Virus record (IMG/VR): IMGVR_UViG_3300044656_000027
Coordinates: 1 to 64,000 of that record
Reading direction: 5' to 3' (one strand)
DNA from: a virus
Taxonomy: Duplodnaviria > Caudoviricetes
DNA: 64,000 nt
Under the pieces are notes generated by a model. The model was not told where the DNA came from and did not search any database. It saw only the letters and a program-made list of their open reading frames with translations. The translations under genes and the position numbers were made by a program. The first letter of the stretch is position 1, and every line of letters starts with the position of its first letter. Below, piece after piece: positions 683 to 1,966 of the stretch.

Positions 683-1309
683 TTAGCTGTGAGGAGCGTT
701 GTACACAGGAATGCGAATTCGCTCACCCGGATAGATCAGGTTAGGGTCCTTGATAATGTCCTTGTTCACACTGTAAATCTGCTCCCAAGAGACACTGAAC
801 TCCTTACCCAACTTGGCAAGATAATCTCCAGGCTTGACGATGTAGTTGAACTCAGTAGGCGGCTGGTGGCAATGCTTGAAGTGATTACCAGGACCACAGT
901 CAATAGGCGGCTTAGGCTTCTCAGTGGCCTTAGGACGCGCCACAGGGACAGCACGGTCCTGAGACTCAAGGTTACTGCGGTTGTCGTCGTAAAGATGAAC
1001 TCCACAGATCGGCCACGCCTCAATACCCTGAGAAGCCAGGACGTTCTCAGCCACACGAATCTGCTCACTGCGGGAAGCATTAGCAGGATTACCAGAACCA
1101 CCATTAGCAGCCCAAGTACCTAGCGTGAACTGGAGACCACCGTAATAGCCGTTTCCAGTATTGGCATGCCAATTACCACCTGACTCACAATTTGCAACCG
1201 CATCCCAGTCATGGGAAGCAGCGTGAGCCTCGCTGATATCAAAGCCCAGAACTCCAACCAGCGCCATAGCGGAGAGAGTAAAAGCAATTGCGATATTCTT
1301 CGTCTTCAT
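683..1309 (-). CDS. rpf: Secreted resuscitation-promoting factor (Rpf transglycosylase + LysM)
   Basis: Signal peptide ending AHA; [28 protein letters not shown] Rpf signature with catalytic Glu; C-terminal LysM (YIVKPGDYL...[13 protein letters not shown]). Confidence 0.95.
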
Positions 1310-1321
1310 TACAAACCCTTC

Positions 1322-1864
1322 TTAGTTAATTCGTCCGTAGGAACTAGGTGTTCCGTCGTACCAGATTGGATCGATCTCAACGGAATCTCCGGTATGCGGA
1401 GCGTTGAGGAACTTACCATTCCCCACGTAAATCCCTACGTGATAGGCAGGCCATCCGAAGAAGACCAGATCACCAGGGCGAGGAGAGTACACACGGTGTG
1501 CGTAGTTCTGCTGCTCTCCCGCAGTGCGAGGAATGTGCTTCCCTGCCTTGCGGTAAGAGTAGTACACAAGTCCAGAACAGTCAAAGGACCAAGGTCCAGT
1601 AGCACCCCAACTGTATGGAGCACCTGTCTTAGACTCTGCGATCTTCAATGCGCGCAGCTCCAACGGTAGCACCCGAGTTGCGTTGTTGGCAACCTGCGGA
1701 GCGGCCATAGGCTTAGTAACCTTTGGAGCGACATTCGCGAAAGTAGGCAGCGCGTAACCTACGGTAGAACGAGTAGTGGCGTGCGACTGAGGGATTGGTC
1801 CCAACAGGGCCACGGAGCTTAGCGTAAGAGTTGCAATGGCACGCTTGAATATCTTCCCGGACAT
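1322..1864 (-). CDS. Secreted NlpC/P60 peptidoglycan endopeptidase
   Basis: Signal peptide; PYSWGATGP..FDCSGL, PGDLVFF, HVGIYVG motifs; start placed at ATG 1864 behind AGGAAGGA. Confidence 0.92.
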   Translation of the reverse strand: MSGKIFKRAIATLTLSSVALLGPIPQSHATTRSTVGYALPTFANVAPKVTKPMAAPQVANNATRVLPLELRALKIAESKTGAPYSWGATGPWSFDCSGLVYYSYRKAGKHIPRTAGEQQNYAHRVYSPRPGDLVFFGWPAYHVGIYVGNGKFLNAPHTGDSVEIDPIWYDGTPSSYGRIN

Positions 1865-1885
1865 TGCTGTCCTTCCTGTAGACAA

Positions 1886-1937
1886 TAAGGCCAGTCGCTA
1901 CAGATCAATTGTCTTGATTCTGTAACAACTGGCCTTA
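1886..1937 (-). promoter_or_regulatory. Long leader hairpin of the NlpC/P60-rpf operon
   Basis: TAAGGCCAGTTGTTACAG-A-ATCAA-GACAA-TTGAT-CTGTAGCGACTGGCCTTA; the arm mismatches are G-U compatible on the minus strand. Confidence 0.7.
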
Positions 1938-1966
1938 GCCTATCAGTACCTCTGAGAGCCTGTCAA
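1937..1966 (-). promoter_or_regulatory. Housekeeping-sigma promoter
   Basis: TTGACA-18 nt-TAGGCT. Confidence 0.75.

Follow-up and report, generated by a model that had tools for sequence, protein, structure and literature searches.

An independently promoted operon for a predicted exported NlpC/P60 endopeptidase and an Rpf-LysM protein beside the lysis cassette of a relative of Streptomyces phage BRock

Introduction

The rpfA gene of Streptomyces is controlled by a cyclic di-AMP (c-di-AMP) riboswitch (PMC10117811), and the response regulator MtrA governs actinobacterial rpf, ripA, nlpC and mepA genes, which carry direct-repeat boxes (PMC3353115, PMC5650626). Rpf and the NlpC/P60 endopeptidase RipA were reported to be synergistic (PMC4255298). 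In phages, Rpf and NlpC/P60 motifs occur in mycobacteriophage tape measure proteins, as stated in PMC4255298 with reference to Piuri and Hatfull (2006). Here, we analyze an operon encoding an NlpC/P60 endopeptidase and an Rpf-LysM protein, both with predicted signal peptides, on the minus strand at positions 683-1966 of a 64,000-nt stretch of viral DNA (Caudoviricetes; positions 1-64,000 of IMG/VR record IMGVR_UViG_3300044656_000027; hereafter the window). An earlier reading of the sequence alone, the original prediction, took it for a candidate module by which infected cells rouse dormant neighbours or spores.

Spores and aged mycelium are a main refuge of Streptomyces from phages. Exported germination or outgrowth enzymes under phage control would, if this role is correct, represent a viral counter to the dormancy refuge and a new kind of auxiliary gene; if they only aided lysis, the pair would be an ordinary extra lysin. 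Literature searches found no paper on the role of phage-encoded secreted Rpf/NlpC pairs in Streptomyces phages.

Results

The two genes and their products

The NlpC/P60 (C40) endopeptidase gene (1322-1864, minus strand) encodes 180 amino acids from an ATG codon; a 187-amino-acid open reading frame (ORF) starting with TTG extends to 1885. The Rpf-LysM gene (683-1309, minus strand, 208 amino acids) follows in the same orientation after 12 nt, and each gene is preceded by a Shine-Dalgarno sequence. The peptidase matches Pfam PF00877 with 90 bits (threshold 23; E 1e-25), and its matches in the PDB include RipA (E 5e-15). The second protein matches PF06737 with 113 bits (cut-off 27) and the LysM family PF01476 with 38 bits (threshold 20.9); the best PDB match of its Rpf domain is RpfE of M. 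tuberculosis (E 5e-35).

Both proteins have retained their catalytic residues. In the peptidase these are Cys96, His142 and His157. Cys96 and His142 are kept in 13 phage orthologues, whereas the third residue, His157, is variable; the motifs FDCSGL and HVG are kept as well, except for WDCSGL in GiJojo and HVA in locus L038. The Rpf domain (residues 31-103) is connected by a linker to the LysM domain (residues 156-201) and contains the catalytic Glu42 within a CES motif and the cysteine pair Cys41/Cys102; C41, E42 and C102 are invariant across 27 Rpf homologues.

Both N-termini consist of a basic n-region, 14-19 hydrophobic residues and an AxA site, giving predicted signal peptides of residues 1-29 in the peptidase (SHA/T) and 1-30 in the Rpf-LysM protein (AHA/A). 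They look like cleavable Sec signal peptides, and this layout is maintained despite residue changes in 27 of 27 Rpf relatives and 13 of 13 NlpC/P60 relatives. With a secretion-signal-like N-terminus and a C-terminal LysM domain, the second protein has the RpfA-type architecture of predicted signal peptide, Rpf and LysM. Hence, the assignment of two signal-peptide-bearing cell-wall enzymes in the original prediction agrees with Pfam domains above threshold and with Sec-type N-termini conserved in relatives.

Promoter and terminator

DNA and protein similarity identified the phage as a divergent relative of Streptomyces phages BRock (Borockvirus), GiJojo, Alone3, LuckySocke and pSt2308, and the control elements of the operon were compared among these and further BRock-like loci. 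A promoter of the sigma70/HrdB type (1937-1966, minus strand) is composed of the -35 element TTGACA (1966-1961), an 18-nt spacer and the -10 element TAGGCT (1942-1937), as the original prediction had read it. It was missed by a consensus promoter scanner because TAGGCT is far from TATAAT. All 15 BRock-like loci contain TTGACA-17/18-TAnnnT at the equivalent position, between the stop codon of the preceding gene and the operon, and the spacer sequences of these 15 promoters are unrelated to one another.

The operon is closed by an intrinsic terminator (642-677, minus strand) with a 15-bp stem, a 6-nt loop and a U-rich tail (-30.5 kcal/mol, z -6.8); a hairpin with a T-tract was found at the equivalent spot in the four relatives inspected. 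The lysis cassette further downstream has an extended -10 promoter, TGTTATAGT (629-637, minus strand), which lies directly past the terminator and outside the operon. A TGnTAnnnT element right behind the terminator is conserved in all five loci compared. The lysis cassette is thus preceded by an extended -10 and the operon by a TTGACA-type promoter, so that neighboring units differ in promoter design. With its own promoter and its own terminator within a longer co-oriented block, the operon fits a moron-like independent unit by its sequence, and the conservation of both elements supports the claim that the two exported peptidoglycan cutters are encoded by a bicistronic unit with promotion and termination of its own.

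Genome-wide, TTGACA-17/18-TAnnnT occurs 30 times as compared to 3.9 times in shuffled sequences, an about eightfold enrichment. Fifteen copies cluster at 73-85.5 kb of the genome among tRNAs and small genes; a genome-wide pattern scan revealed no copy on the coding strand of the structural block (35-72 kb). Because this class concentrates in the tRNA and small-gene region and is absent from the structural block, the promoter of the operon was taken as early; judged by its class, it looks like one read early by host polymerase. The cluster itself (73,200-85,560, outside the window), in which fifteen copies lie on the minus strand and a divergent pair is found at ~85.55 kb, is probably an early control region.

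A terminator followed within ~10 nt by a -10-only or extended -10 element is found at 597-682 of the window and recurs at 4475-4549, before an operon headed by a SpoVS homologue, and at 59703-59796, before a structural operon; further cases lie at 82444-82527 and 109661-109730 of the genome. Shared by the lysis, SpoVS and structural units, this terminator-coupled layout seems to constitute a second class of promoters.

Relatives in other phages

Free phage Rpf genes turned out to be common, and the assumption that an exported phage Rpf outside a tape measure protein is unusual had to be given up. An alignment-based search identified relatives encoded on 319 IMG/VR contigs, whereas a single-protein pattern search of IMG/VR had found no close relatives. 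Annotated copies in GenBank phages are BRock gp43, prophi79-1 gp102, REQ1 gp63, Trina gp44 and one in Weasels2. The orthologues carry generic GenBank names, namely 'transglycosylase', 'glycoside hydrolase', 'peptidase' and 'hydrolase'.

About 20 contigs of uncultured high-GC actinophages encode one protein of 345-360 amino acids combining a predicted signal peptide with Rpf, NlpC/P60 and LysM domains, directly upstream of the large terminase; one such fused protein carries an extra M23 domain. In Rhodococcus phage REQ1, gp63 is an Rpf-M23-LysM protein adjoining DNA polymerase/primase, the Rpf gene of Trina sits amid helicase and ThyX replication genes, and the Rpf-LysM gene of Rhodococcus phage Shagrat has genes for a cutinase-like (LysB-like) esterase and for a trypsin-like protease as neighbors. 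No consensus promoters or terminators were detected in scans of the surroundings of the fused genes (locus L051) and of REQ1 gp63. The large terminase of one fused-gene phage (L051, 5230-7599) matches Hint/intein domains and is, by this match, probably interrupted by an intein.

A glycan cutter, an endopeptidase and a LysM domain therefore recur split or fused, which argues that the two activities work together; their location, for the most part away from lysis cassettes, speaks in favor of an auxiliary role. The proposal that the pairing of glycan and peptide cutting is functional gains from the predicted single fused exported proteins of unrelated actinophages. For a physical and synergistic partnership like that of RipA and Rpf, these fusions and the operon linkage in 13 of 15 genomes give indirect support only.

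Leader of the operon

The 5' leader (1865-1936, minus strand) contains a long hairpin, conserved sequence blocks and a small hairpin over the Shine-Dalgarno region. The long hairpin, noted already in the original prediction, is formed by 50 nt (1936-1887) directly after the -10 element (-37.7 kcal/mol, z -7.6). Only 4 of 13 relatives form it strongly, and covariation in the alignment fold was weak, so that it was rejected as a conserved RNA structure. Together with a U-rich tract the hairpin may stop read-through from the SpoVS operon, and transcripts starting at the operon's own promoter would not include the GC-rich foot of the hairpin.

Sequence blocks of the leader are better conserved than its structure. 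One block, GTTACAGAATCAAGACAAT (1926-1908, minus strand), contains two ..ACA units 11 bp apart, a second one is GGCCTTATTGTCTA (1892-1879, minus strand), and in an alignment of 11 leaders GTTAC, GACA and TTGTCTA are invariant. The block GTTACAGAAYCAAGACAWT immediately past the -10 element shows invariant AC dinucleotides 11 bp apart in the leader alignment. Each of 14 related loci contains a single copy of the 13-nt motif TCCYTRTTGTCWA, located in the leader, and the 85 other fetched loci contain none; a second copy was not found anywhere in this genome, and the idea of a shared operator was dropped. The small hairpin pairs UUGUCUA with the Shine-Dalgarno region GGAAGGA (1876-1870) and, as predicted by this pairing, is one that hides the ribosome-binding site. 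We distinguish the GTTACA..AAGACA block, the TCCTTATTGTCTA block and the anti-Shine-Dalgarno pairing. Short and conserved as it is, the leader represents a well-defined putative regulatory element.

An Rfam search of positions 500-2400 gave no family at E<=1 except for a chance miRNA match, and the ydaO (c-di-AMP) riboswitch was not found in it. The sequence GTTACAgaatcAAGACAAT right after the -10 element matches the MtrA consensus of C. glutamicum at 11 of 16 positions (PMC3353115) and that of S. coelicolor at 7 of 11 positions (PMC5650626). The first leader block is a candidate MtrA-type direct-repeat box on these matches, a doubtful assignment that serves as a lead only.

Two insertions were observed in this region. 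In GiJojo (L002, 4868-5380), the leader is interrupted by an HNH endonuclease gene that separates the promoter from the peptidase gene, and the leader motif is partly duplicated; in L007 (5113-5553), an HNH endonuclease gene is inserted in the neighborhood of the operon.

Cellular relatives

The closest cellular relatives of the phage peptidase are C40 peptidases of 157 amino acids found across Streptomyces (50-58% identity). Their genes have, in three species, a ydaO riboswitch just before the start codon: L099 matches the full model with 42.9 bits, and L098 (36.1 bits) and L096/L097 (35.2 bits, partial model) score just under the Rfam gathering score of 38 bits. By these leaders, the host C40 genes are members of the riboswitch-controlled set of wall hydrolases that includes rpfA.

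The Rpf-LysM protein shares 45-49% full-length identity with cellular RpfA-type proteins. No ydaO riboswitch was found at the gathering threshold in two rpfA-like leaders of Pseudonocardiaceae; the upstream regions of these two genes contain MtrA-like direct repeats GTGACG-TTACG-GTGAC (L091, 2256-2271; L092, ~2262-2285). An Rpf tree of phage and host copies was poorly resolved, and no donor was inferred from it. The G+C content at third codon positions (GC3) is 52-55% in the phage pair as compared to 91% in the host homologues; the genes are therefore old residents of the phage lineage.

Genome setting and lysis cassette

The record comprises 111,289 bp, and its first and last 127 bp are identical; it is a circular assembly of 111,162 bp unique sequence, of which the window is the first 64 kb. 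The genome has ~49% G+C and encodes a contractile tail with the sheath at 50170-52089. A 1007-amino-acid tail protein (45387-48410) has its own NlpC/P60 domain and a transglycosylase-like domain. The operon is indeed distant from these tail genes, and the two domains attributed by the original prediction to the tape measure protein are present in the 1007-amino-acid protein, a tail protein that is possibly the tape measure.

The lysis cassette (1-596 of the window, minus strand) begins 86 nt downstream of the operon with a cysteine-rich gene of 186 amino acids, g186 (36-596), and the first codons of a 65-amino-acid ORF (1-36). Reading across the origin, the order past the terminator is g186, the 65-amino-acid membrane ORF, the 116-amino-acid gene g116 and a GH25 endolysin of 309 amino acids. 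The 65-amino-acid ORF (window 1-36 and, at the far end of the genome, L005 15002-15199, minus strand) overlaps the next gene by 11 nt. Its product has a single clear membrane helix; another stretch is weakly hydrophobic, and the C-terminus is highly charged. From these features it looks like a holin. Homologues with 37-44% identity were detected by tblastn in only 4 of 14 relatives. The endolysin (PF01183, E 1e-24; endolysin PHROGs) has a glycosidase domain only and no signal peptide. The earlier statement that the unit has no adjacent holin, and with it a reading as self-contained and away from lysis, was thus an artefact of the window edge, as a holin-like ORF and an endolysin follow across the circular junction. 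Entry (the tail protein, as the original prediction had proposed) and exit (the cytoplasmic GH25 endolysin) already have enzymes of their own.

Synteny in related phages, which had been suggested as a check, was largely maintained: the order SpoVS operon, NlpC/P60, Rpf-LysM, 186-amino-acid gene, small membrane ORF (where present), gene of ~116 amino acids and endolysin is found in 13 of 15 related genomes. L008 and L018 have no NlpC/P60 gene, and the same promoter and leader stand directly before Rpf-LysM. Here and in several relatives the endolysin is of the GH25 type, whereas BRock and GiJojo encode an N-acetylmuramoyl-L-alanine amidase in its place; the exported pair is retained in either case. 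This endolysin slot (L005 13732-14661, minus strand; BRock gp40; GiJojo gene 177) is mosaic, and its flanking genes are conserved.

Several neighboring genes were noted in addition. The SpoVS homologue heading the upstream operon (4184-4474, minus strand; PF04232, 80 bits) shows 71-85% identity in all BRock-like loci; SpoVS has a nucleic-acid-binding fold. Within the same operon, a 94-amino-acid protein (3336-3620, minus strand) has two membrane helices and a charged tail, and copies in relatives match Pfam DUF1003; this topology makes it another candidate for a holin-like protein, encoded 1.5 kb upstream from the pair. A few genes past the endolysin, L005 encodes a 505-amino-acid homologue (9902-11419, minus strand) of phage queuine tRNA-ribosyltransferase-like proteins (phrog_887, E 4e-94).

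Discussion

Tentatively, and with less than even confidence, we read the operon as encoding an exported wall-remodelling pair that mimics host enzymes, is regulated apart from lysis and conditions or wakes host cells. Several features of the sequence point in this direction: the domains and catalytic residues are intact and the predicted signal peptides conserved; the promoter is present in 15 of 15 relatives and belongs to the TTGACA class, and the terminator and a separate lysis promoter are conserved; the phage has a tail lysin and a signal-less GH25 endolysin besides, and among relatives the pair is retained when one endolysin type replaces another. Furthermore, related genes of other phages stand beside terminase, DNA polymerase and replication genes, host C40 homologues have a c-di-AMP riboswitch that is missing from the phage leader, and GC3 suggests long residence in the phage. 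A germination phenotype of rpfA is known (PMC10117811) and, together with the synergy of Rpf and RipA (PMC4255298), is consistent with such a role. Germinating or young mycelium is the main target of Streptomyces phages (PMC7650747, PMC10276819); waking or conditioning would therefore enlarge the usable host pool.

According to this proposal, host RNA polymerase would transcribe the unit early or all through infection, and expression would be free of the host c-di-AMP brake and under control of the leader itself. The infected hypha would export both enzymes via Sec. Peptide cuts by the NlpC/P60 enzyme and glycan cuts by the peptidoglycan-anchored Rpf-LysM protein would jointly open the cross-linked wall from outside, and the producer would not burst; instead, wall remodelling of the germination or outgrowth type would take place. 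Aged hyphae and spores near the infection focus might thereby be softened or roused, and hosts kept or made susceptible and productive. In its boldest form, which we consider unlikely, hyphae would release the pair as a viral 'germinant' that wakes dormant spores or re-sensitises aged mycelium, the phage would thus generate susceptible hosts for itself, and the leader motif would tie expression to a host wall-stress regulator such as MtrA.

A number of points speak against conditioning or waking. In every BRock-like genome examined, operon and lysis cassette are direct neighbors, and phage genes usually cluster by function. Timing can be judged from the promoter class only indirectly, the LysM domain may tether the enzyme to the wall of the producer itself, and the pair is not obligatory, since L008 and L018 are without the peptidase. 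Moreover, over-expression of host rpfA delays germination and does not speed it; over- and under-expression both cause a delay (PMC10117811), and any effect would therefore be dose-dependent.

The same location gives weight to a role in lysis, which we regard as the main alternative and a serious possibility. Pre-exported helpers would reach the wall via Sec and be held in check there until the holin collapses the membrane potential, as is the case for signal-peptide endolysins such as Lys44 of Oenococcus phage fOg44. By cutting peptides and glycans in addition to the GH25 endolysin, they would make thick cross-walled hyphae lyse faster or more completely. In 13 of 15 relatives, g186, the holin-like ORF, g116 and the endolysin follow the operon immediately, and the endolysin is solely a glycosidase which a peptidase would complement; the PHROG matches of the LysM part are endolysin families, and the Rpf-LysM gene of Shagrat adjoins a LysB-like esterase. 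However, a strong terminator and a differing promoter type divide operon and cassette in all loci compared, and the promoter belongs to a class inferred to be early and not represented in the structural block. Exchange of the endolysin type leaves the pair unaffected, and equivalents elsewhere stand beside terminase or replication genes and not beside lysins. Furthermore, the Rpf fold is that of a host remodelling enzyme of low activity and not of a typical lysin (PMC4255298). A canonical holin-dependent endolysin was ruled out by the signal peptides and by the terminator with its separate promoter; the GH25 protein has that role.

Independent and possibly early regulation, together with predicted export and LysM anchoring to the wall, would also suit a modification of the infected cell's own wall, which could block superinfection or open cross-walls for spread between hyphal compartments. 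We consider this improbable: no sequence feature suggests receptor modification, we are not aware of any case of exclusion by Rpf or NlpC/P60, and opening of cross-walls is inseparable by sequence from the other readings. Finally, the enzymes could be virion-associated and act during entry, like the tape measure Rpf and NlpC/P60 motifs of mycobacteriophages. The PHROG matches of the peptidase domain are tail-protein families, and this domain is 45% identical to that in the tail protein of the same phage. Yet conserved cleavable signal peptides would take the proteins out of the cytoplasm, where virions are assembled; the proteins are small and encoded outside the tail module, and the tail already has such domains. 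A function as virion lysins is thus most improbable and was rejected on account of the signal peptides.

The set of activities recurs among unrelated actinophages, either split or fused, and this speaks for a selected function. The new points are the conserved leader and the contrast with riboswitch control in the host; the orthologues themselves had already been annotated under generic terms in GenBank.

Among described loci, the closest are BRock gp44/gp43, GiJojo 173/174 and those of Alone3, LuckySocke and pSt2308, in which the two genes are identically arranged and share promoter and leader motif, with the SpoVS operon upstream and the endolysin two to three genes downstream. They differ in that their proteins are only ~45% identical to those of the phage studied here; BRock and GiJojo have an amidase-type instead of a GH25 endolysin, and the GiJojo leader has the HNH insertion. 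The fused proteins and REQ1 gp63 likewise unite these activities with LysM in phage-encoded, predicted exported form. In contrast to the operon, they are single polypeptides encoded beside terminase or DNA polymerase, the peptidase of REQ1 gp63 is M23 and not NlpC/P60, and none of these proteins is close to this Rpf in the poorly resolved tree. The mycobacteriophage tape measure motifs are the same two domain families aimed at host walls; they are internal parts of virion entry proteins, whereas the proteins described here are free and bear predicted signal peptides.

Judged by sequence, the pair is a copy of the host toolkit: an RpfA-type layout and a C40 peptidase akin to the riboswitch-led enzymes of Streptomyces, minus the riboswitch. 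The 157-amino-acid C40 peptidases resemble the phage enzyme as small secreted single-domain NlpC/P60 proteins; their genes carry ydaO, unlike the phage gene. Cellular RpfA-type proteins (S. coelicolor SCO3097 and 'transglycosylase family proteins' of Pseudonocardiaceae) show the identical domain layout, the catalytic Glu and the Cys pair. Their genes are monocistronic with long leaders, whereas the phage gene occupies the second position of an operon whose leader is short and unrelated, and its GC3 is phage-like. RipA with RpfB/RpfE of M. tuberculosis represents the homologous combination of an NlpC/P60 enzyme and an Rpf glycan cutter; RipA is larger, with coiled-coil and pro-domains, and the phage pair is linked by an operon and in other phages by gene fusion.

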